NCBI GenBank assembly: GCA_019326865.1
Contig: GCA_019326865.1_4101.1
DNA length: 64,000 nucleotides
Strand: one strand, 5' to 3'
Origin: a phage
Part shown: positions 1,273 through 21,990 of the stretch, one piece after another
Position numbering within the stretch: the first letter of the stretch is position 1
How the letters are laid out: the number at the start of each line of letters is the position of its first letter
The notes under the pieces: generated by a model
What the model saw: only the letters and a program-made list of their open reading frames with translations
What the model was told of the DNA's origin: nothing
The model's database searches: none
Position numbers and translations under genes: made by a program

Positions 1273-2757
1273 ATGAAAACTTGTAAGTTAACCTTATTGG
1301 ATGAGGTGAATTGTAAATTTGAGGGACTTGATCCCTCAATTAGACAAAAGATGATTCGTGCAACTGAATATGTGTTACCATATGCAAAGTTCACACCAGC
1401 AGGACGTATTGGACGTTGGGATGGTAAAGTTCAGTTTATGAATTTAGGTGGAACAACTTATTATCATATGTTAGATAAGTTATTGCCTATTCTTGATGAA
1501 GCTAAGATTGACATTGAATTGGTAGATCATAGGGTAGATTATGGATTTAAATTTGACCCTATTGATGAAGATATTTTTAGTGATGTTGTATTCGGTGCAG
1601 GACACCACATGGAAGGTAAATCCATAAAACTACGTGAACATCAAGTTAATGCGGTTAATGCATGTTTGGCTAATCCACACGGATTACTATTGGCAGCTAC
1701 TGGTGCAGGTAAAACACTCATTACTGCTGCATTGTCAAAGAAAGTGCAAGAGTATGGACGTTCTGTTATAATAGTACCAAGTACTGACTTAGTACAACAA
1801 ACATATGATGACTATATTATGTGTGGGTTGGATACTGGTATGTTCTATGGTTCACAAAAAGATTTTGGTCACCAACATACTATTACAACGTGGCAATCAT
1901 TTAACTCTCTATGGAAGAAAACCAAGAAAGGTGAAATTGAATTAACTGAACAAGATGTTAATGATTTTATCGATGGAGTAGTTTGTGTTATCGTTGATGA
2001 GTGTCAAGGTGCAGGTGGTGACGCATTAGTTCAAGTACTATCTAAAGTTATGAACAACGTACCATTACGTTGGGGTCTTACTGGTACAATTCCGAAAGAT
2101 CCGGTTGTCGCCGCAAAAATCAAATGTAATGTTGGTGATGTTATATTTAAAATAACTGCAAAGGAATTACAAGATAAACAGATACTAAGTACATGTAATG
2201 TAAATTGCATAAAACTAAAAAGTAGTATGAAGTTTGCATCATATGCTGAAGAGTTGAAATACTTAGTAACTGACAGAGATAGAATGGCATATATAGCATC
2301 ATTGATATCTGCGTTATCTGAATCAGGAAACACTTTAGTTTTAGTAGATAGGCTTGAAGCGGGTGAGTTGTTATGTGAATTTTTAGGTATTCCCAAATCA
2401 GAATTTGTTCGTGGAGAAACTAAAAAGAAAGATCGAGAATCATCATATGGTGAAATTCGTTGGGCTGATAATAAAATACTTATTGCGACATACGGTGTTG
2501 CCAGTACTGGTATCAGTATTTCAAGGTTATACAATGTAGTATTGATTGAGCCAGGAAAAAGTTTTGTAAGAACTATACAATCAATCGGACGTGGATTACG
2601 CCGAGCAGAAGATAAAGACCATGTGGAAATATATGATATTAGTGGTTCTAATAAGTATAGTGCAAAACATTTACGTGAACGTTTAGCATATTATAAGGAA
2701 GCACAATATCCGCATAGTATAATAGATGTTAAAGATTGGGAAAACACAGCGGGATAA
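1273..2757 (+). CDS. SF2 helicase (UvsW-like)
   Basis: Walker A LLAATGAGKT, DExx box VIVDECQ, C-terminal helicase motifs; 494 aa. Confidence 0.65.
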   Translation: MKTCKLTLLDEVNCKFEGLDPSIRQKMIRATEYVLPYAKFTPAGRIGRWDGKVQFMNLGGTTYYHMLDKLLPILDEAKIDIELVDHRVDYGFKFDPIDEDIFSDVVFGAGHHMEGKSIKLREHQVNAVNACLANPHGLLLAATGAGKTLITAALSKKVQEYGRSVIIVPSTDLVQQTYDDYIMCGLDTGMFYGSQKDFGHQHTITTWQSFNSLWKKTKKGEIELTEQDVNDFIDGVVCVIVDECQGAGGDALVQVLSKVMNNVPLRWGLTGTIPKDPVVAAKIKCNVGDVIFKITAKELQDKQILSTCNVNCIKLKSSMKFASYAEELKYLVTDRDRMAYIASLISALSESGNTLVLVDRLEAGELLCEFLGIPKSEFVRGETKKKDRESSYGEIRWADNKILIATYGVASTGISISRLYNVVLIEPGKSFVRTIQSIGRGLRRAEDKDHVEIYDISGSNKYSAKHLRERLAYYKEAQYPHSIIDVKDWENTAG

Positions 2758-2768
2758 ACCCGCTGTTT
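2746..2768 (+). terminator. possible terminator hairpin over helicase stop codon
   Basis: cagcggg-ataaa-cccgctg stem-loop, weak T-tract. Confidence 0.4.
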
Positions 2769-2777
2769 GTGATATAA
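2769..2777 (+). promoter_or_regulatory. extended -10 promoter element (TGaTATAAT)
   Basis: TGnTATAAT about 25 nt upstream of next start; same motif recurs at 39580. Confidence 0.4.
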
Positions 2778-2800
2778 TGTGTCATATGTAAACAACAAGG

Positions 2801-3241
2801 ATGTGGAATAAAATGGAATTGAGATCTAGTATTGCTTTTGTCTGTGACCAAGAAACGTTAGAGGTTATGGATGTATTGTTGAATGATGATGGTATTATGG
2901 ATGACATGGTGTCTTCTCTTGACTATATTCCTGAACTAGAAACGGATGATACTAACGTATGGAGATGTAACATTGATGGCGATTCGTGGATTAATATCTA
3001 TGAATTACAAACACGAATTGATTCTAAGGTTGAATCATTGAAATATGATATCATCTATGCAAGTACTGATACAAAAACTTTTATTGATGTAGTAAGTCTA
3101 AGTGGTAATTTTGATTCATATCTTGATACTGATGTGGATAAAATTCAAGAGATGTGTGATACATACGGACTTGAATTTTATGGTGCAGAAGATTTGGATG
3201 ACGAAGACTATTACGATGATGAAGAAGAATCACAGTACTAA
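2801..3241 (+). CDS. hypothetical acidic protein
   Basis: 146-aa ORF, strongly acidic C-terminus (DDEDYYDDEEE). Confidence 0.55.
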   Translation: MWNKMELRSSIAFVCDQETLEVMDVLLNDDGIMDDMVSSLDYIPELETDDTNVWRCNIDGDSWINIYELQTRIDSKVESLKYDIIYASTDTKTFIDVVSLSGNFDSYLDTDVDKIQEMCDTYGLEFYGAEDLDDEDYYDDEEESQY

Positions 3242-3250
3242 GGAGACGAT

Positions 3251-3748
3251 ATGAACGTATTAACACCAGAAAATACATCTTTTGATATGGATTTAGTAAC
3301 AGAACATATCCCTGAAGAAATGTATTGTGTTTTGGATTTAAGTCCAAATGGTGAATCTGATTTTTATTTTAGACATATTCTAAACACCGTATCATTTAAT
3401 AGTATTAGTGCTGATCTTCAAATTGGTGAAAAGATTATTCAAGTGCCTTTAGGATGGCAAATTATGTTAGGGGATGAAGAAACTGGTATGGTTGAGATGT
3501 GCACAATTGAAAACATTCTCAACATGAAAGAACCAAAAGCTTTTGTTTATAATCCTATCCGTTCGATGTATCCTAAGTTTGAGCCAGTAAAAGTACTACG
3601 TGTATTTGCTTTAACAACTAAGTGGCAAATTCCAATGCTACCGAAAAAGAATTTACTCTGTGTGCCGTTACATAGTGGTGAAAATCCACCATGTGTGTAC
3701 TTTGCAGATGAAAATGAAAAAATTCAAGATTTGTATCTAGGAGTATAA
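3251..3748 (+). CDS. hypothetical protein
   Basis: 165-aa ORF tightly packed in + strand operon. Confidence 0.55.
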   Translation: MNVLTPENTSFDMDLVTEHIPEEMYCVLDLSPNGESDFYFRHILNTVSFNSISADLQIGEKIIQVPLGWQIMLGDEETGMVEMCTIENILNMKEPKAFVYNPIRSMYPKFEPVKVLRVFALTTKWQIPMLPKKNLLCVPLHSGENPPCVYFADENEKIQDLYLGV

Positions 3749-3752
3749 AATA

Positions 3753-4595
3753 GTGTTTGATTTCAGTGATATTAAAAATAAGTCAGTCGATGATGATAAA
3801 CCAACACAGCAGTCTTTTTCTATTGCTGAATTTCTAAAACATATTGACCGTGCTGATTATAAGTTCTATAATGACATGACAGAAAAAGAACGAAAAGAGT
3901 TTACACCTTATACTGTTTTGCGATGGGTAAGCTCTTTGGATGATTCTCTTCAAGTTACATATCCAAGTAGTAAAGTTGAAAAAGTATTTGGTAAATGGAA
4001 AGCTGGTGGTAAGGAAACATTAACTGAACTAGTAACTGAATTGAAGTCTTCTGGGACTAATGTTTCATCAGTAACCAAGTACTGTCACGGTGACTATGAT
4101 TGGCGTATTAAATTTGCGGTTCAATCTAAAGATGCTGCACAAAAATTAATATCATCAATGACAGAATTTGGTGTAACTGGTTCTGAAATTGTGTCATTAG
4201 TAGATACTGAAGTTGTAAAATATCAACTTATTATGCTGAATGACATGGTTAATGATGGTTTTTGGGATATGAAAGAACATCCAGAATTAGTATATCAACT
4301 TATGTGCTCAGTGCATGATATGATTGGTGGACAAGAAATGCCCCGTAATTGGTTGAATTTTTCTAAAAATTTCAAAAAAGCAAACAATGAACTATTTGAA
4401 TTAATTAAAAGTTCACAACCTGATACTATTTCTACTCAAATGAATGAAGATGAATATAAAATTGTTTTATTACAGTATGATAAAAAATCATTTGAAACAT
4501 TTCTTGACAATAATGGTTTACAAGATAATGAAAAGAAATCTATGATGAAATTGTTTAAAGATGAATGTAAAAAATATGGAAAAGAAATCAAGTAA
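3753..4595 (+). CDS. hypothetical protein
   Basis: 280-aa ORF, apparent GTG start. Confidence 0.5.
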   Translation: MFDFSDIKNKSVDDDKPTQQSFSIAEFLKHIDRADYKFYNDMTEKERKEFTPYTVLRWVSSLDDSLQVTYPSSKVEKVFGKWKAGGKETLTELVTELKSSGTNVSSVTKYCHGDYDWRIKFAVQSKDAAQKLISSMTEFGVTGSEIVSLVDTEVVKYQLIMLNDMVNDGFWDMKEHPELVYQLMCSVHDMIGGQEMPRNWLNFSKNFKKANNELFELIKSSQPDTISTQMNEDEYKIVLLQYDKKSFETFLDNNGLQDNEKKSMMKLFKDECKKYGKEIK

Positions 4596-5286
4596 TAAAG
4601 TATACACCTGTAAATTTTGTGACCGTGAATTTAAACGAGAAGAAACTGTCAGCACACATAAATGTATAAAACGTGACCGATACGAAGACCGCCAAAGCCG
4701 CCAGATGATGGAGGCTTTTCGTATATATATGCAATTTATGGAATTGAATAAGTTCCCATTTAAAAAAGGCGTGGAGCCTTTTATTGCTTTTATAAAATCG
4801 AAGTACTTTAATGATTTTTATAGTTTCGCAGAATACTATTTGAATAATAGAGATATTATAAATGTGGACGAGTTTGTAAAGAACTTGATTATCACTAACA
4901 GACCAATTACTGAATGGAGTACGTATAAAGCAAAAGATGAATGGATATTAAAAACTATTCGTGCAGAACATCCAAAAGAAGCTATTGCACGAAGTGTAAT
5001 ATCATTGGTTGAATGGGCTGAAAAGTTGAATGTACAATGGAACACCTTCTTTGAAAATGTAAGTTCTGCTCGTGCAATTGCATGGATAGAGAGTGGTAAA
5101 ATTTCACCGTGGATTATATGGCTTGCTCCTAAAAAAAGTACTAATAAGTTTTTTAAAAAACTATCAAACTCAGAAATTGAATATATACTTAAATACATCG
5201 ATCCAAGTTATTTTGAAATAAAAACTATAAAATACAAAAAGGATTGTGATGAAATTAAGATTATGCTATGTGAGGCAGGATTATGA
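4561..5286 (+). CDS. hypothetical protein with C2HC zinc-finger-like motif
   Basis: CKFCDREFKREETVSTHKC near N-terminus; 241 aa. Confidence 0.5.
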   Translation: MNVKNMEKKSSNKVYTCKFCDREFKREETVSTHKCIKRDRYEDRQSRQMMEAFRIYMQFMELNKFPFKKGVEPFIAFIKSKYFNDFYSFAEYYLNNRDIINVDEFVKNLIITNRPITEWSTYKAKDEWILKTIRAEHPKEAIARSVISLVEWAEKLNVQWNTFFENVSSARAIAWIESGKISPWIIWLAPKKSTNKFFKKLSNSEIEYILKYIDPSYFEIKTIKYKKDCDEIKIMLCEAGL

Positions 5287-5612
5287 ATGGAAAAAGTATA
5301 TATAACAAAATACCAGAAGGGTATGTACCTGTACCTAAAGAACAAAAATCAAAACAAATATCTCTACTTCGACAAGGATCTATTACTGAAATAACACTAG
5401 ATGGCAAAACATTTCAAGTTCACGATCCGGCTCGTGTTGAAAAAATAATTTCTTTAGTTGAAAGACATGAAGAGCGATTTTTTAGTTTGAGTCAGGAGTT
5501 AGCAAAGACAAAACAAAATTGTAAAATATTAGAGAAACAAATATCAACGTTAGTTAATACAGTTAAACAGTTACAGGAGCAAATAAAAAATGCAGGATTT
5601 GACCGATTCTAA
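5283..5612 (+). CDS. hypothetical protein
   Basis: 109-aa ORF, coiled-coil-like C-terminus; start overlaps previous stop. Confidence 0.5.
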   Translation: MNGKSIYNKIPEGYVPVPKEQKSKQISLLRQGSITEITLDGKTFQVHDPARVEKIISLVERHEERFFSLSQELAKTKQNCKILEKQISTLVNTVKQLQEQIKNAGFDRF

Positions 5613-6228
5613 ACATTATAGAAAGGCCCGAACTGATATTGACATTGACTTCAAGGATAGTAAAAGTGTAATTGCAAAACTTCCTTGTGTACGAAGTACT
5701 GAAAAAATTACGGAGGATGGTTTAATCCCCCATAATAGTGGTGTTCATTTTGACAATATACCAACTGATCCAATTACTGGTTTGGCTAGTATACAATATA
5801 AAGAAGCTGAAAGGTTAGGATATCAAAAAGTTGATATTCTTTCACAGTCAGCTTACATGTATGTTCGTGATAGAGAACATTTAAAAGAACTAATGAATCA
5901 GGAACCAAATTGGGATTTATTGTTAGAACCCGAAATAGTAGAGCATCTCTCGCAAATTAAAAAACATGTAACATTGTTAAATGTATGGAAGCCTAAATCA
6001 ATAGACGAACTGGCAATGTTTATTGCCATGATTCGCCCAGGAAAAAGGCAGTGCCAAAGTATGAACACATGGGACGAGGTAAAAGCCACCATATGGGACT
6101 ACAGTACTATTGGCACGGACCAAGCAGGAAATAAATTACGATATTTCAAAAAGCCACATGCTTATGCATATAGCTTAATGATTGTTGTACAACTAAATGC
6201 TTTAGTTGAACATCTTACTTCTTCTTAA
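5590..6228 (+). CDS. DnaE (Pol III alpha)-like palm/fingers fragment
   Basis: By-eye motifs matching DnaE in order: DIDIDF (cf PDFDVDF), HNSGV (cf HAGGV), YQKVDIL (cf KFDFLGL), AMIRPG (cf LFRPGP), KKPHAYAYSL (cf NKSHSAAYAL); only 212 aa. Confidence 0.45.
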   Translation: MQDLTDSKHYRKARTDIDIDFKDSKSVIAKLPCVRSTEKITEDGLIPHNSGVHFDNIPTDPITGLASIQYKEAERLGYQKVDILSQSAYMYVRDREHLKELMNQEPNWDLLLEPEIVEHLSQIKKHVTLLNVWKPKSIDELAMFIAMIRPGKRQCQSMNTWDEVKATIWDYSTIGTDQAGNKLRYFKKPHAYAYSLMIVVQLNALVEHLTSS

Positions 6229-6568
6229 GTGCCACATTACGACGTTTGATGCGTTTCTGTGGCAAATTGCTTAAAGAAACTACTGGACCACATACGAAAT
6301 TCACCGATTGTGTATCGAATCTCTGTGTGTACGGTTCAAATTTCTCCATCTCTTCTTGAAAGAATAGACAAACTGGAATGGTTCTATTACTTTGCCACCA
6401 CCAATCATGTGCTATACTTAACAATTCGTCTTGCATTGATTCATTCATATCATCGAAACAATAAAGAGTTGTATACTGTTTGCTTTTGATTTTGATGATA
6501 CCAATAAACGTTTTACCATCATACTGGATTACAGTAATGAATGGTGGGATAGTGTTATATTGATTCAT
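6215..6568 (-). CDS. hypothetical protein (minus strand)
   Basis: 117-aa ORF filling the gap between + genes; basic C-terminus; 3' end overlaps convergent + gene by 14 nt. Confidence 0.4.
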   Translation of the reverse strand: MNQYNTIPPFITVIQYDGKTFIGIIKIKSKQYTTLYCFDDMNESMQDELLSIAHDWWWQSNRTIPVCLFFQEEMEKFEPYTQRFDTQSVNFVCGPVVSLSNLPQKRIKRRNVALKKK

Positions 6569-6625
6569 ATTAGTTCCATAAATATTAGTATAAATTTATA
6601 CCTATTATTTATGGAAGGAAAAACT

Positions 6626-7603
6626 ATGGCTCATCACGGCGTGTTTATGTACCCTTATAACCAGGAAGTATCATTGGGCAATTTTAATATGCCATTTAGT
6701 AATGAAAAACTAACTATCTATCGAGGGGCAAATAATAATTTATCTTTTACTGTTCACAACGCTGATGGAAAATATACTTTATTGAAAGATAATGAATATC
6801 TTACATTTATGATTTTTGATGCACGAAATAATACTAAACTATTTGATGTTGTATTGGAAAAGCAAGAACCAAGTTGGTTATCAGAAAGTGGTCAAGCTCG
6901 TCAAACATTGGGAAATAAAAAGAAAGTATACTATGGATGTATTGTTCCAGCAGGAGTTATTCAAGATACCAGTCCTGGTTCCAAATATAGATGGAGCATT
7001 ACTAAAGTAACTATGGATGGTTCACTTATAGAACCAACACAATATCTATACACTGGAATGAACTTTGAGGCATCAGCGGAGCTAATAATTTCAGACCAAG
7101 CAGCCCCAGTATTTGTTCCTAGTACTGAAATATCTACAGACAAAAATCCAGCCTGGACATCAATAAAGCGTTTATATAATGAACCAATTGGTAATGGTAT
7201 GATAGGTGAGTATGATATACTAGCATCAACTCCACTTCCAGCACAAATGCAGTATGGGTTGGTTGATGGGCTAAGTAGCATTGCAATCTATTTTGATAAA
7301 TTCATTGGAAGAATACAGTTACAAGGATGTTTGTGTAATAATGTACCTAATGATAATGAAAATTATAAATGGTTTATAATCAAATTAGATGGAAAGGATT
7401 ATATTGAAAATGGGATTGATATTGATGGATTTCCAAAAGAGCTTGATGGTATTCAAGCATTTAATTTCAAAGGAAATTATATGTGGTTGCGAATCGTAGT
7501 AGCAATTCATCCTAAAAATGTTCCAGTACCATACGACTATGCTGCTGTGCGAAAAGTGTATAATCCTTTATTAACTGTACCTAAAATTTTGATTCGCAGG
7601 TGA
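6626..7603 (+). CDS. hypothetical protein
   Basis: Start moved to ATG at 6626 after GGAAGGA RBS; about 325 aa. Confidence 0.55.
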   Translation: MAHHGVFMYPYNQEVSLGNFNMPFSNEKLTIYRGANNNLSFTVHNADGKYTLLKDNEYLTFMIFDARNNTKLFDVVLEKQEPSWLSESGQARQTLGNKKKVYYGCIVPAGVIQDTSPGSKYRWSITKVTMDGSLIEPTQYLYTGMNFEASAELIISDQAAPVFVPSTEISTDKNPAWTSIKRLYNEPIGNGMIGEYDILASTPLPAQMQYGLVDGLSSIAIYFDKFIGRIQLQGCLCNNVPNDNENYKWFIIKLDGKDYIENGIDIDGFPKELDGIQAFNFKGNYMWLRIVVAIHPKNVPVPYDYAAVRKVYNPLLTVPKILIRR

Positions 7604-7621
7604 GACAAAATTAGAAGGTGT

Positions 7622-7630
7622 GCTATAATC
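7622..7630 (+). promoter_or_regulatory. extended -10 promoter element (TGcTATAAT)
   Basis: TGcTATAAT about 28 nt upstream of primase start. Confidence 0.4.
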
Positions 7631-7658
7631 ATTTGTAAGAAAAGACAAGGATTAACTT

Positions 7659-8714
7659 ATGAACGCTGTACAAAACATAATGGCACAAATAATGAATGAT
7701 CCAGTACCTTCAATTGGTACATGGTCACATCACAATTGTCCAGCTTGCGTGTTCAGAGGACATTCAAGGCCGGATACAAAGCACCGTGGTAATCATATGT
7801 TCAATGCAGATGGTTCCGTATCATATAACTGCTTTAACTGTAGTTTAAAAACGGGTTGGCAGCCTGGAAAATATATGAGCAAAGATATGGAGTCTTTGCT
7901 CATTTCTTTTGGTGCACAAGATAAAGAAATAGAATTAGTTAAGTTTTATATTAAAGAAATGGTTGATAGTGGAGATTACGCTACACAAGAAACGGTTGTA
8001 TCAAAATTATATGATAGAATAACTGTGCGTGATTTACCATCAAATGCTAAAACATTTTGGGAATGGGCTTCTTTACCAGAAGACAAAATTCCCCGAGAAT
8101 TTTTGAGTGTTTTGCATAACGTCAATGAACGAAATCCATACTTGTTAGATTTAGAATTATATTGGTCACCCAATAAAGAACATAAAATGTATGACAGGTT
8201 TATTATTCCTTATTTCATGAATGGAAAAATCATTGGATACACAGCAAGACACAAATTAAAAGATCCTGGAAGTACATACAGGTTTATAAATCAAGTAAGT
8301 ACTAATATACTATACAATTATGATTTATTAAAAGATGATAGAATAAAAACAATTTTAGTATGTGAGGGACCATTGGATGCTGCATTGATGGGTGGGGTAT
8401 CTGCAAATAACTTTAAACTATCAAATGTACAAATTGATGTATTAAAAGATGCACAACAAAAAGGTAAAAAAATAGTTATTGTTCCAGACCGAGACAAAGA
8501 TGGATTAATAACAATAGAACAAGCACTTGAAAATGGATTCAGTGTGTCGTTCCCAGACTTTGGTGCAGTAAGAGAAGGGAGCACTATACGTCACGTCAAA
8601 GATTTTGAAGAAGCTTGTTCACGATTTGGAAGATTGTTTTGCTTACAATTAATACACGATAGTATAGTAGATGAGCCATTTTATATCAAAGCTCAAACAG
8701 AAAAATGGATGTAA
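7659..8714 (+). CDS. DNA primase (zinc ribbon + TOPRIM)
   Basis: CPAC...CFNC zinc ribbon; TOPRIM motifs LVCEGPLDA and IVPDRDKDG; 351 aa, directly upstream of helicase. Confidence 0.75.
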   Translation: MNAVQNIMAQIMNDPVPSIGTWSHHNCPACVFRGHSRPDTKHRGNHMFNADGSVSYNCFNCSLKTGWQPGKYMSKDMESLLISFGAQDKEIELVKFYIKEMVDSGDYATQETVVSKLYDRITVRDLPSNAKTFWEWASLPEDKIPREFLSVLHNVNERNPYLLDLELYWSPNKEHKMYDRFIIPYFMNGKIIGYTARHKLKDPGSTYRFINQVSTNILYNYDLLKDDRIKTILVCEGPLDAALMGGVSANNFKLSNVQIDVLKDAQQKGKKIVIVPDRDKDGLITIEQALENGFSVSFPDFGAVREGSTIRHVKDFEEACSRFGRLFCLQLIHDSIVDEPFYIKAQTEKWM

Positions 8715-17668: not shown

Positions 17669-19987
17669 ATGATTAACGTAACCAAGCGTAATGGAATGAA
17701 AGAACCGTTATCATTGGATAAGATCCATCAGATTTTATTTTTCGCTGCTGAAGGTCTAAGTGGTATTTCAGTTTCTGAAATTGAAATTCGTGCACAACTT
17801 CAGTTTTATGAAGGTATTGAAACTAGTACTATTCATGATATTCTGATTAAAGCAGCCGCAGAACTTATTTCAGAAGATACACCAAATTACCAATATGTTG
17901 CTGGTAGATTATTAAACTATAGTATTCGTAAGCAAGTATATGGGCAGTATGACCCGATTAAATATGCTGCTCATCTTCAAGAAATGGTTGATATCAAAAT
18001 ATATGATCCTGAAATTCTTGAAAAATATACTCTTCAAGAAATAGAAGAGCTTGGGCGTTATATCAAACATAAACGTGACGATAAATTTACTTATGTTGCA
18101 ATGCGACAATGGGAAGGAAAATACCTTTACAAAAACCGCGTTACTAAGAAAATTTATGAAACTCCACAAATGGCATATATGACTATTGCCGCAATCATTT
18201 TTATGGAGTATGATCGTTCCGTTCGTATGTCATATGTTAAAAAGTTTTATGATGCAGTAAGTAACTTTGACATTAGTCTTCCTACACCTATTATGGCTGG
18301 TCTACGTACAAACACACGTCAGTTTAGCTCTTGTGTAGTTCTAAATGTTGGTGACAGCTTGGATAGTATTGGTTCATCTAACCACGCCATTCTACGTTAT
18401 ATTTCACGTAAAGCTGGTCTTGGTATTAATATGGGCCGCATTCGTGCCTTGGATTCCGAGATTCGTTCAGGTGATGCAGTACATACTGGATTGATTCCGT
18501 TCATTGCAGCTACTGCTAAAACTGTTAAAAGCTGTTCACAAGGTGGTGTTCGTGGTGGAGCAGCAACTGTTCACTTCCCATTGTGGCATTTGGAATTTGA
18601 TAACTTGGTAGTTCTTAAAAACAACAAAGGAACTGAGTTTAACCGTGTACGTCAACTGGACTATTGTTTCCAAGTAAACAAAACTTTGTATCAACGTTTG
18701 GTTGATGGAAAGAATATCACGTTCTTTAGTCCTAATGAAGTTCCTGGGTTATATGATGCATTCTGCTCTGATCAAAAAGAATTTGAAAAGCTATATAAAA
18801 AATACGAATCTGACCAAAGCATCCGTAAAAAATCCGTACCTGCTGTTGAAGTATTCAGTACTTTAATGACGGAACGTGCAGAAACTGGTCGTATCTATAT
18901 TCAAAATATTGACCATACAAACACACACTCAACATTTATTGAATCAAATGCTCCTATCGAGCAATCCAACTTGTGTCAGGAAATCGCACTACCATCTGTG
19001 CCATTTGATGATATTAATACTGGTAAAGGTTTGATTAGTTTATGTACCTTGAGTGCAATCAACTGGGGTAACTTTGACCGTCCAGAAGAGATGGAAACTG
19101 CATGTGATCTTTCTGTTCGTGCTCTTGACTCACTTTTAGACTATCAAGACTATCCAGTAGTTCATGCGGATCGAGCAACAAAAATGTATCGTCCACTAGG
19201 TGTTGGTATTATTAACTTTGCCTATTTCCTTGCTAAACGTGGTTTACGTTATAATGAAGCTGCACTGGAAACAGTTAACGAATGGGCTGAAGCATGGTCT
19301 TACTATCTAATTAAATCGTCTGTACAGCTTGCTAAAGAGAAAGGTAAATGTGAAGGATTTGATAATCTAAAATATGCCAAAGGTATCCTTCCAATTGATA
19401 CTTATAAATCTGATATTGATGAATTAGTAACTAAAGAACTAAAACAAGATTGGGAATCTTTGCGTGAAGATATCAAAGAATATGGCATTCGTAACGCAAC
19501 AACCATGGCATTAATGCCAGCAGAAACAAGTGCACAAATCAGTAACAGTACTAACGGTATTGAAAAACCACGTTCTCTCGTAACTAAGAAACTATCTAAG
19601 GATGGTATTCTTAAACAAGTAGTTCCTGAAATTAATAAATTAAAAAACAAATATGATTTATTATGGGAACAAAAAGATAACATTGGTTATCTACAAATTT
19701 GTGGTGTTCTACAAAAATACATTGACCAAAGCATCAGTGTTAATACCAGTTATAACCCAGCACACTTCCCTGATGGGAAGTTGCCAATGTCGACTCTCCT
19801 AACTGAGCTTATGTATGCATATAAGGTTGGTTTGAAAAATCTTTATTATCATAATACAAATGATGGTTCAGATGAAGTAGACGTTGAAAAAGTACTGAAA
19901 GAAGCTGCAAAACCAGAATCAGGGCAGTTCGTGTTACCTACACTATCGGACTTAGATGAAGGTGATTGTGATAGTTGTAAAATCTAA
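17669..19987 (+). CDS. nrdA: ribonucleoside-diphosphate reductase alpha subunit (class Ia)
   Basis: N-terminal ATP-cone (VTKRNG...), 772 aa, C-terminal Cys pair (CDSC); followed by nrdB. Confidence 0.85.
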   Translation: MINVTKRNGMKEPLSLDKIHQILFFAAEGLSGISVSEIEIRAQLQFYEGIETSTIHDILIKAAAELISEDTPNYQYVAGRLLNYSIRKQVYGQYDPIKYAAHLQEMVDIKIYDPEILEKYTLQEIEELGRYIKHKRDDKFTYVAMRQWEGKYLYKNRVTKKIYETPQMAYMTIAAIIFMEYDRSVRMSYVKKFYDAVSNFDISLPTPIMAGLRTNTRQFSSCVVLNVGDSLDSIGSSNHAILRYISRKAGLGINMGRIRALDSEIRSGDAVHTGLIPFIAATAKTVKSCSQGGVRGGAATVHFPLWHLEFDNLVVLKNNKGTEFNRVRQLDYCFQVNKTLYQRLVDGKNITFFSPNEVPGLYDAFCSDQKEFEKLYKKYESDQSIRKKSVPAVEVFSTLMTERAETGRIYIQNIDHTNTHSTFIESNAPIEQSNLCQEIALPSVPFDDINTGKGLISLCTLSAINWGNFDRPEEMETACDLSVRALDSLLDYQDYPVVHADRATKMYRPLGVGIINFAYFLAKRGLRYNEAALETVNEWAEAWSYYLIKSSVQLAKEKGKCEGFDNLKYAKGILPIDTYKSDIDELVTKELKQDWESLREDIKEYGIRNATTMALMPAETSAQISNSTNGIEKPRSLVTKKLSKDGILKQVVPEINKLKNKYDLLWEQKDNIGYLQICGVLQKYIDQSISVNTSYNPAHFPDGKLPMSTLLTELMYAYKVGLKNLYYHNTNDGSDEVDVEKVLKEAAKPESGQFVLPTLSDLDEGDCDSCKI

Positions 19988-19995
19988 ATAAAAAA

Positions 19996-20020
19996 ATCCC
20001 GCTTCGGCGGGATTATTTTT
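19996..20020 (+). terminator. rho-independent terminator
   Basis: atcccgc-ttcg-gcgggat hairpin plus T-tract. Confidence 0.75.
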
Positions 20021-20034
20021 AACGGAGTGATATA

Positions 20035-20808
20035 ATGAAAGTTGATTATTTTAAACCAATTAATATTGGTTTCATTGAGGAATTTTGGGATGATTTGGAC
20101 ATGGATATGATTGTTCGCCATCAAAAGCTTCCAGACGATTTCATTAAGAAGCATTTTGATAAAATGAACCCTAACATGTTGGCTCGTTATCAAACTATGT
20201 CAATTGATTTCTTAAAAGAAAAGTGGGAATGGTTCGATAAGAACGTTCTGGCAACATATGTTGTCATGCCACTGGAACTCATTAAAGAAAAGTGGGATGA
20301 TTTTAAAGATAACTGTCTTGGAACAGTTGCAAAATACCAAAAAATGTCATTGGATTTTATACAAGAAAAATGGGATGACTTTGTAGAGTTTAAAGATGGT
20401 GTAATGTCAGAAATCTCTCGTTACCAAAAATTAACTCTGGATTTCATTCAAGATAAGTGGGAATATATAGATAAGAATTATATTTCTTATTATCAAACTT
20501 TAACTGTTGATTTCATCAAAGATAACTTAACAGAACTGAACATTGCTGCGGTATCTGCATTCCAAATTATTTCTGATGATGTTCGAAATCTTATGGGATT
20601 GGCTGCACCAGCAGCAACCATTACCGGAAACCAAATATTATCTCTAGACCCATGTGTGGATGGTATGGCACGATATAACGCCCATACTCCTGATAACACA
20701 ACAGTACTGACATGGAATGAATTATTACAAAAACACTTGGGTACACAGGACGGAATTCGTGATATCCATTGGTTGTCTTATAAACTAGGACATAACATCA
20801 ATACATAA
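20035..20808 (+). CDS. tandem-repeat protein
   Basis: Five to six ~27-aa repeats with core YQ-x-[ML]-[ST]-[IL]-DF-[IL]-x-[ED]-KW-[DE]; 257 aa. Confidence 0.55.
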   Translation: MKVDYFKPINIGFIEEFWDDLDMDMIVRHQKLPDDFIKKHFDKMNPNMLARYQTMSIDFLKEKWEWFDKNVLATYVVMPLELIKEKWDDFKDNCLGTVAKYQKMSLDFIQEKWDDFVEFKDGVMSEISRYQKLTLDFIQDKWEYIDKNYISYYQTLTVDFIKDNLTELNIAAVSAFQIISDDVRNLMGLAAPAATITGNQILSLDPCVDGMARYNAHTPDNTTVLTWNELLQKHLGTQDGIRDIHWLSYKLGHNINT

Positions 20809-20827
20809 TATATAAGGAAATATATAA

Positions 20828-21952
20828 ATGTCCGTTTTTAAAATTAACGAAAAATCACACTTAGAAAAAAATATGTTTTTTGATGAAAGTGTTGACATTC
20901 AACGATTTGAAAGTGTAAAATATTCAGCACTAGAGAAACTAACTGAACAACAAAAAAGTTTCTTCTGGACCCCAGGAGAAGTTGATGTATCTAAAGATAA
21001 AATTGATTTTGCCAACCTTAATGATTCAGAGAAGCACATTTTTACCTCTAACTTGAAACGTCAAATTCTTCTTGATTCTGTACAAGGTCGTGGTCCAAAC
21101 CTAATGCTACTACCATATGCATCACTACCTGAATTAGAGAACTTTATTGAGACATGGGCATTCTTTGAAGGTGCGATTCATAGTAAATCATATACTCATA
21201 TTATTCGTAACATTTACCCTAATCCATCTGAAGTGTTTGATACTATGTTGGACATTCCAGAAATCACAGATTGTGCGGCTGATGTGTCTAAGTATTATGA
21301 TGAACTGGATGAGCTAGGTACATGGTATAAAGTACTGGGTGAAGGAACTCACAATGTCAATGGTAAAACTATTGTTGTTGATATGTACGAACTTAAAAAG
21401 AAAATGTGGTTGTGTCTGAATAGTATTAACATCCTTGAGGGTGTGCGTTTTTACGCTAGTTTTGCCTGTTCGTGGGCCTACGCCGAAAACAAGCTTATGG
21501 AAGGTAATGCCAAAATTATTCGTCTAATTTGTCGTGATGAAAATTTACACTTAGCGGCAACACAAATGATTCTTCGCCTACTTAAGAAAGAAGATCTAGA
21601 CTTTGCAAAAATTGCAGAAGAGTGTTATGATGAAGTACTGGAAATGTTCATGTCTGCAATCCGTCAAGAAGAAGCTTGGGCAGATTTCCTCTTTAAAGAT
21701 GGTTCAATCATTGGACTAAATGCAGAAATCCTAAAACAATATGTTCGCTGGATTGGTTCTAAGCGTATGTCAGCACTAGGAATTAAATGTCCATATACTG
21801 TATCTAAGAGTAACCCACTACCTTGGACTGAGCATTGGGTTAGTGGTGGTTCAGTACAAGTTGCACCGCAAGAAACTGAAATAAGTTCTTACATCATTGG
21901 TGGTATTGTTAATGATATCCAAGGAGATACATTCACGCCATTCAAACTATAA
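20828..21952 (+). CDS. nrdB: ribonucleoside-diphosphate reductase beta subunit
   Basis: 374 aa, ferritin-like helices, directly downstream of nrdA; uninterrupted. Confidence 0.8.
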   Translation: MSVFKINEKSHLEKNMFFDESVDIQRFESVKYSALEKLTEQQKSFFWTPGEVDVSKDKIDFANLNDSEKHIFTSNLKRQILLDSVQGRGPNLMLLPYASLPELENFIETWAFFEGAIHSKSYTHIIRNIYPNPSEVFDTMLDIPEITDCAADVSKYYDELDELGTWYKVLGEGTHNVNGKTIVVDMYELKKKMWLCLNSINILEGVRFYASFACSWAYAENKLMEGNAKIIRLICRDENLHLAATQMILRLLKKEDLDFAKIAEECYDEVLEMFMSAIRQEEAWADFLFKDGSIIGLNAEILKQYVRWIGSKRMSALGIKCPYTVSKSNPLPWTEHWVSGGSVQVAPQETEISSYIIGGIVNDIQGDTFTPFKL

Positions 21953-21962
21953 ATTAAAACTA

Positions 21963-21990
21963 AAAAGGGATTCATAGAATCCCTTTTCTT
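21963..21990 (+). terminator. rho-independent terminator
   Basis: aaagggattc-ata-gaatcccttt hairpin plus T-tract. Confidence 0.7.

Follow-up and report, generated by a model that had tools for sequence, protein, structure and literature searches.

What is a gene for an internally repetitive protein doing between the two ribonucleotide reductase genes of a jumbo phage, and does its product take any part in the enzyme? The question arises from a 64,000-nucleotide stretch of phage DNA, here called the window, in which a first-pass annotation had noticed an open reading frame (ORF) with internal repeats at positions 20,035 to 20,808, between nrdA and nrdB; both the exact coordinates and the repeats hold. 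The window belongs to a jumbo Asteriusvirus close to phage UE-S1: over the 4.4 kb of the nrd region its DNA is 95.8% identical to that of Escherichia phage UE-S1, NrdA and NrdB share 98.6% and 99.7% of their amino acids with the UE-S1 proteins, respectively, and the equivalent ORF is annotated there as a 'hypothetical protein'. The nrdA counterparts in UE-S1, PBECO4 and CBB are annotated as the ribonucleotide reductase (RNR) alpha subunit. The locus comprises the following features.

17669 to 19987, plus strand: nrdA, class Ia ribonucleotide reductase large subunit, 772 aa, the left flank
19995 to 20014, no strand assigned: G+C-rich hairpin AATCCCGCTTCGGCGGGATT with a T run behind it, in the gap that separates nrdA from the ORF, terminator-like on both strands
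20024 to 20027, plus strand: GGAG ribosome-binding site of the ORF, 7 nt before its ATG, read from the sequence
20035 to 20808, plus strand: repeat ORF of the tryptophan repeat gene (TRG) family, 257 aa, 30.3 kDa, pI 4.85, between nrdA and nrdB
20828 to 21952, plus strand: nrdB, RNR small subunit, the right flank, 20 nt after the stop of the ORF
21962 to 21988, no strand assigned: terminator-like hairpin after nrdB, found on the minus strand

The hairpin behind nrdA, past which the ORF begins after 20 nt, is kept in UE-S1, where the annotation gives a terminator at the equivalent position, in Ecwhy_1 and also in PBECO4, which has no such ORF; it is present with or without the repeat gene, and nrdB always lies behind it. 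Since nrdB is downstream of the hairpin in every phage, we infer that transcription must pass it at least partly, and the element may attenuate transcription or stabilise the RNA without full termination. A ribosome-binding site is annotated in UE-S1 at the same place as the GGAG. Between the ORF and nrdB there is no terminator, and a sigma-70-like promoter for nrdB within the 3' end of the ORF (compare mobE of T4) was looked for and not found; the ORF is probably co-transcribed with nrdB. The hairpin after nrdB, at whose equivalent UE-S1 again has an annotated terminator, is the probable end of an nrdA-ORF-nrdB unit.

The repeats themselves are real, albeit not quite as first counted. In a BLOSUM62 autocorrelation of residues 1-185 there is a peak at lag 23 with z = 8.9, against a largest z of 4.7 over all lags in 2000 shuffles, so that the significant periodicity on which the first-pass proposal depended is indeed there. 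Five to six repeats of about 27 aa had been proposed; the array consists instead of seven units and a degenerate eighth, with a period of 23. The exact motif YQ-x-[ML]-[ST]-[IL]-DF-[IL]-x-[ED]-KW-[DE] has three copies, at residues 52, 101 and 130, and four further degenerate units lie in register with these copies, giving seven units of 23, 23, 23, 26, 29, 23 and 23 aa whose sum-of-pairs score reaches z = 26 against shuffles in a register chosen after inspection. Residues 178-200 align with the last 'ILSDEFIEEF' helix of the homologues. Tandem Repeats Finder detects no DNA-level tandem array in the ORF; the repeat exists at the protein level only, and the duplication is therefore old. The protein divides as follows.

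20056 to 20565, plus strand: seven tandem repeat units, residues 8-177, from the autocorrelation and the units in register
20056, 20125, 20194, 20263, 20341, 20428 and 20497, plus strand: first nucleotides of the seven units
20566 to 20634, plus strand: degenerate eighth half-unit and linker, residues 178-200, IISDDVRNLMGLAAPAATITGNQ
20635 to 20805, plus strand: conserved C-terminal module, residues ~201-257, [DN]PCxDGxxRY..HT...[TS]WNxLLxxH...DIxWL

The description of the product as solenoid-like is borne out by structure prediction. From an alignment of 42 sequences, AlphaFold2 models a confident all-alpha solenoid (mean pLDDT 92.3, pTM 0.82) in which a pair of short helices makes up each repeat unit, with a third helix in those of 26 and 29 aa, a small helical domain caps the C-terminus, and pLDDT falls to 79-88 at residues 178-200. 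The only solved-structure analogues of the model are protein-binding solenoids, namely HEAT repeats and the leucine-rich repeat variant, LRV (1lrv; 3c5w, the PP2A A subunit), which are analogues of fold class at 6-11% identity; the ORF matches no HEAT, HEAT_PBS or LRV profile, and a search of PDB sequences with the family profile returned 0 matches.

To which family, then, does the protein belong? Scans against Pfam, NCBIfam and PADLOC gave no meaningful family, the only two matches to the anti-phage defence and counter-defence models of PADLOC (both at E 0.019, ~12 bits) being noise, while the PHROGs matches are all to families of unknown function (phrog_3532, E 8e-33). An exhaustive phmmer search collected 651 representative proteins (clusters at 50% identity, E <= 1e-3), many of them long and with numerous copies of a canonical unit, ISxYQKLSEDFIREFKDKVDW; the distant homologues are all named 'hypothetical protein' or not at all. 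A family name is nonetheless provided by gp045 of Bacillus phage BpSp, which carries a TRG family annotation and which BLASTP aligns to the ORF product at E 5e-19 in several register-shifted alignments, and tblastn adds Listeria phage LPJP1 (2e-12) and phage G gp563 (2e-7). In a Foldseek search of the viral models in BFVD, the TRG proteins of entomopoxviruses come first (MSV027, AMV029, MySEV; E 2e-9 to 3e-10, 22-26% identity, TM ~0.6 on the query), and five of the top ten are from entomopoxviruses, four of these annotated TRG, at probability 1.00 with predicted models on both sides; pithovirus proteins and phage G gp558-563 follow. The entomopoxvirus origin of the family name is taken from BFVD/UniProt descriptions and PMC7728225.

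The seven units with their period of 23 conform to the TRG unit of ~23 aa, [IV]SxxQxL[ST]x[DE]F[IL]xx[FHW]xD[KR][VIL][DN]W, and retain its Q-x-L-[ST]-x-[DE]-F-I core. The terminal Trp of that unit (...DKVDW) is absent, with DKN, NPN or MDM in its place, and the Trp of the ORF repeats is located at EKW, five residues before the TRG position; the loss of the eponymous Trp position, with a Trp five residues earlier, makes this a divergent member. In sequence similarity to annotated members and in a fold shared with the entomopoxvirus members the protein agrees with the family, whereas in copy number it does not, for Rak2-like phages have the gene at one place per record as compared to 11 in LPJP1 and 6 in BpSp, and tblastn finds no paralogues in the 64-kb window (the best match, E 0.075 and inside the dihydrofolate reductase ORF, is noise). 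Multiplicity is arguably a trait of the genomes in which TRG genes were first described and not a criterion of membership. The ORF product is accordingly a TRG-family protein, divergent and single-copy, of a family already known and uncharacterised: the literature that we found naming the family gives no function and reports no experiment on any TRG protein.

Comparison with other carriers of TRG repeats places the protein more precisely. The entomopoxvirus proteins (MSV027/029/205 of Melanoplus sanguinipes EPV, AMV029/AMV254 of Amsacta moorei EPV) likewise consist of ~23-aa helix-pair repeats, but they form multi-copy families of a eukaryotic virus and often measure 300-600 aa, whereas the ORF occurs once per phage genome, encodes 257 aa, ends in a C-terminal module of a distinct kind and has its conserved Trp shifted within the unit. 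In AMV254 an F-box is reported alongside the TRG repeats, suggesting that the protein acts as an adaptor (PMC7728225). The proteins of phage G (gp556-563), BpSp (gp045/gp053) and LPJP1 resemble the ORF in sequence and have the same predicted fold in BFVD; such Bacillus and Listeria jumbo phage proteins are annotated as TRG family, function unknown (PMC12484599), and occur in 2-11 copies per genome away from nrd, the BpSp copy adjoining a helicase, unlike the ORF with its single copy and fixed slot. On two very large viral contigs TRG-repeat genes have expanded to at least four to six separate copies each, as in entomopoxviruses and phage G and unlike the single copy of Rak2-like phages: IMGVR_UViG_3300028029_000006 (409 kb; loci L033, L060-L062, L071 and L082) and IMGVR_UViG_3300027898_000006 (168 kb; loci L024, L056, L066 and L067). 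Among cellular genomes TRG is seldom met: ~185,000 species genomes yielded 33 loci, mostly in MAGs. Relatives on four Bacteroidales MAG contigs from ruminant gut (L083-L085, L087) match query residues 2-246, the C-terminal module thus included, and may be prophages or binned phage contigs.

That module, of ~55 aa and helical in the model, matches neither Pfam nor solved folds; it appears to be the only undescribed element of the protein and, having no Pfam family, could be defined as a new domain. Its near-invariant residues are P206, C207, G210, Y214, W227, N228, L230, D243, W246 and L247. Some 40 short metagenomic phage proteins carry the same module behind 3-6 canonical TRG repeats. Those of this two-part architecture (P0155, P0156, P0157, P0096, P0164 and others) share PC..G..RY...W[ND]...D..WL with the ORF and differ from it in their 3-6 canonical repeats, their length of 130-220 aa and an identity of 28-39%, the first 70-100 residues remaining unaligned in most alignments; where checked, their genomic context is unrelated to RNR, as in P0164, which lies on an unrelated phage contig next to a tail-fibre-like gene and an HNH endonuclease gene and without nrd genes. 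Other TRG proteins carry DUF7666 at their N-terminus, and further relatives have still other end domains. A relationship between the module and DUF7666, both of which contain 'PCxxG', was considered and rejected (hhalign probability 2.7% over 7 columns). The joining of TRG arrays to such varied ends, be it the C-terminal module, DUF7666 or others, argues for a portable, adaptor-like scaffold.

The gene is maintained by selection. Its dN/dS amounts to 0.14 against UE-S1 and 0.06 against Ecwhy_1, more relaxed than nrdA and nrdB (0.006-0.04) yet clearly purifying, from which it follows that the ORF is a functional gene. The ORF product and NrdA are 84% and 96% identical to their Ecwhy_1 counterparts and 63% and 75% identical to those of CBB, respectively, so the divergence of the ORF tracks that of its flanks at a faster pace, as fits an old residence with repeated loss. 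Against Ecwhy_1 (L003, 5434-6207), the dS of the ORF is 1.8 as compared to 0.69 for nrdA and 0.85 for nrdB; this roughly twofold excess suggests, as far as sequence comparison goes, that the insert either is less constrained in its codons or has recombined differently from its surroundings, and it is compatible with a recombinational exchange bounded by the conserved flanks.

Whether the position is unusual, as had been supposed, depends on what else is found there. The ORF is present in 19 GenBank records, always between nrdA and nrdB and with 62-94% amino acid identity. Its carriers include nine Asteriusvirus-like coliphages, EJP2, the Yersinia phages fHe-Yen9-03 and fHe-Yen9-04, the Xanthomonas phages XaC1 and XbC2, Erwinia phage Kaldavass and Pectobacterium phage CBB; with IMG/VR, where the orthologous loci have the order nrdA-ORF-nrdB in 9/9, they span Asteriusvirus, Mimasvirus, Eneladusvirus and unclassified Xanthomonas and Erwinia phages, and the length is constant at 257 aa across at least four genera. 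The presence in related phages that the first-pass annotation had proposed as a check is thereby found in 19 GenBank records and 9 IMG/VR contigs, along with absence from ~40 relatives. In these ~40 Rak2-like phages (the PBECO4/121Q group, the Salmonella SD phages, the Erwinia pEa_SNUABM phages, Serratia BF, Hallingskeid and others) the slot is empty and tblastn finds no copy elsewhere in the genomes, and phages with and without the ORF are separated by a clean indel of ~790 bp running from the nrdA hairpin to the nrdB ribosome-binding site. With ~40 relatives doing without it, the gene is dispensable.

The slot has other occupants. In Cronobacter phage GAP32 (L010, 3912-4649) it contains GAP32_299, of 245 aa, which matches MUG113 at 23.9 bits (cutoff 22.3) and DUF723 weakly and is likely a GIY-YIG-like free-standing homing endonuclease. 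In T4 the occupant is mobE, and the region around the nrd genes is described as a hotspot at which endonucleases insert (PMC2790892), so that a gene does stand where the first-pass annotation saw one, in a place that is a documented insertion hotspot of T4-like phages and in this sense not unusual. In fHe-Yen9-04 (L005, 5784-7951), nrdB is annotated as two CDSs, g298 (5784-6494) and g300 (7523-7951), separated by g299, of 245 aa and without a Pfam match, with the TRG orthologue g297 adjacent; the gene is probably split by an intron or a free-standing mobile insertion. A free-standing homing endonuclease (HNH, GIY-YIG or LAGLIDADG) was considered as an identity for the ORF itself and rejected: the position fits, and the ORF contains no nuclease domain. 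Like mobE (PMC2790892), the ORF is a gene between the reductase genes behind a terminator, and GAP32_299 is in the same slot; unlike the mobE-type homing endonucleases, it has no HNH, GIY-YIG or other nuclease signature.

One might therefore regard the ORF as selfish or passenger DNA, a mobile-element remnant or cargo that persists in the nrd hotspot without benefit to the phage, a reading consistent with the endonucleases of T4 (PMC2790892) and GAP32 in the same slot, the nrdB of fHe-Yen9-04 split by an inserted ORF, the patchy presence of the ORF within each genus and its dS of 1.8, which hints at a history separate from that of the flanks. We consider it very unlikely all the same, for the protein matches no nuclease or DNA-binding family, it is acidic with a pI of 4.85, it is under strong purifying selection at a length constant across genera, and neither terminal repeats nor a target duplication are seen at the junctions.

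More relevant to the question posed at the outset is whether the protein serves the reductase, the first-pass annotation having suggested a scaffold or protein-binding module associated with the reductase or a nucleotide-precursor complex. That association turns out to be positional only. Binding to the phage reductase (NrdA2B2) as its scaffold or regulator, or bridging between the enzyme and a complex that makes dNTPs, would agree with the nrdA-ORF-nrdB order kept in the 19 GenBank records and 9 IMG/VR contigs over several genera, with the uninterrupted passage from the ORF to nrdB, no terminator separating the two, and with a predicted solenoid fold suited to scaffolding; it would also agree with an unrelated phage contig (L045) that has a TRG gene directly behind nrdA-nrdB on the same strand. 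Against this stand the ~40 relatives that lack the gene anywhere and whose NrdA is nearly identical, as in PBECO4 (98.3% protein identity to the window for NrdA, 93.9% for NrdB), the endonuclease in the GAP32 slot, the general character of the slot as an insertion hotspot (PMC2790892), the same architecture without nrd neighbours in P0164, and the different C-terminal domain of the TRG protein of L045. A wider linkage to nrd was looked for among the distant TRG loci of IMG/VR and rejected: 2/63 have nrd genes within 6 kb, approximately the chance rate for a 12-kb span in a 300-kb phage. We find no NrdI flavodoxin, NrdH redoxin or YfaE ferredoxin-type domain in the ORF with Pfam and NCBIfam, only the nrd operon position fitting such a role, and the all-alpha model has no cofactor-binding fold. 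The link between the ORF and the reductase is one of synteny, and a scaffold or regulator of the enzyme seems unlikely to us.

In the unrelated contig just mentioned (IMGVR_UViG_3300045921_000443, 2485-6930), NrdA and NrdB are 49% and 47% identical to those of the window, and nrdA-nrdB is followed by two adjacent TRG-repeat ORFs on the same strand (5935-6237 and 6367-6930), which may be one interrupted gene.

A more specific proposal is that the phage class Ia reductase has a dedicated, conditionally dispensable partner in the TRG array and C-terminal module together; this partner might hold RNR to a further factor, or protect the synthesis of nucleotides against a response of the host. Such a partner would explain the kept slot and the exact length across several Rak2-like genera, and it would furnish the first function for any TRG protein and for the C-terminal module; we hold it to be decidedly unlikely.

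A role as a virion or assembly component may be dealt with more briefly. Neighbours of nrd in PBECO4, CBB and fHe-Yen9-04 are marked as virion structural proteins in RefSeq, but the orthologues of the ORF, CBB gp304 and fHe-Yen9-04 g297, remain 'hypothetical protein' although the genes around them are labelled structural; the CBB paper makes no mention of gp304, and dispensability argues against a core structural role. This reading strikes us as highly improbable.

What we regard as reasonably probable, rather than a reductase partner, a selfish relic or a virion protein, is a dispensable TRG solenoid adaptor. The variety of end domains attached to TRG arrays, among them the F-box of AMV254 (PMC7728225), forms the pattern of an adaptor, and a protein-binding adaptor is, on the predicted model with its HEAT and LRV analogues, the most likely identity of the product. 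It would be a cytoplasmic, soluble, acidic alpha-solenoid of helix-pair repeats capped by the C-terminal module, whose solenoid surface would, to judge by its fold class, bind a host or phage protein, and whose C-terminal module would supply a second conserved contact or an activity. It would be expressed with the genes of nucleotide metabolism, probably transcribed with nrdB, as the product of an accessory gene that Rak2-like phages inherit in the nrdA-nrdB slot and have repeatedly lost or replaced, and some hosts at least would support a lytic cycle without it. It would be neither a subunit nor an obligatory cofactor of the reductase and would presumably have no catalytic role. Two considerations weigh against the adaptor: a slot and a length of 257 aa that do not change over at least four genera could stem from a functional connection with the reductase, and the protein is, by its repeat sequence, a divergent TRG member in which the canonical Trp is not kept.

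For the reductase, the result is mostly a negative one, in that the product of the intervening gene probably does not belong to the enzyme. For the TRG family, which is large and extends from insect poxviruses and pithoviruses to jumbo phages, the ORF offers a convenient handle, being single-copy in a cultivable coliphage lineage in which natural relatives with and without it exist, their flanking genes being 92-95% identical in DNA.
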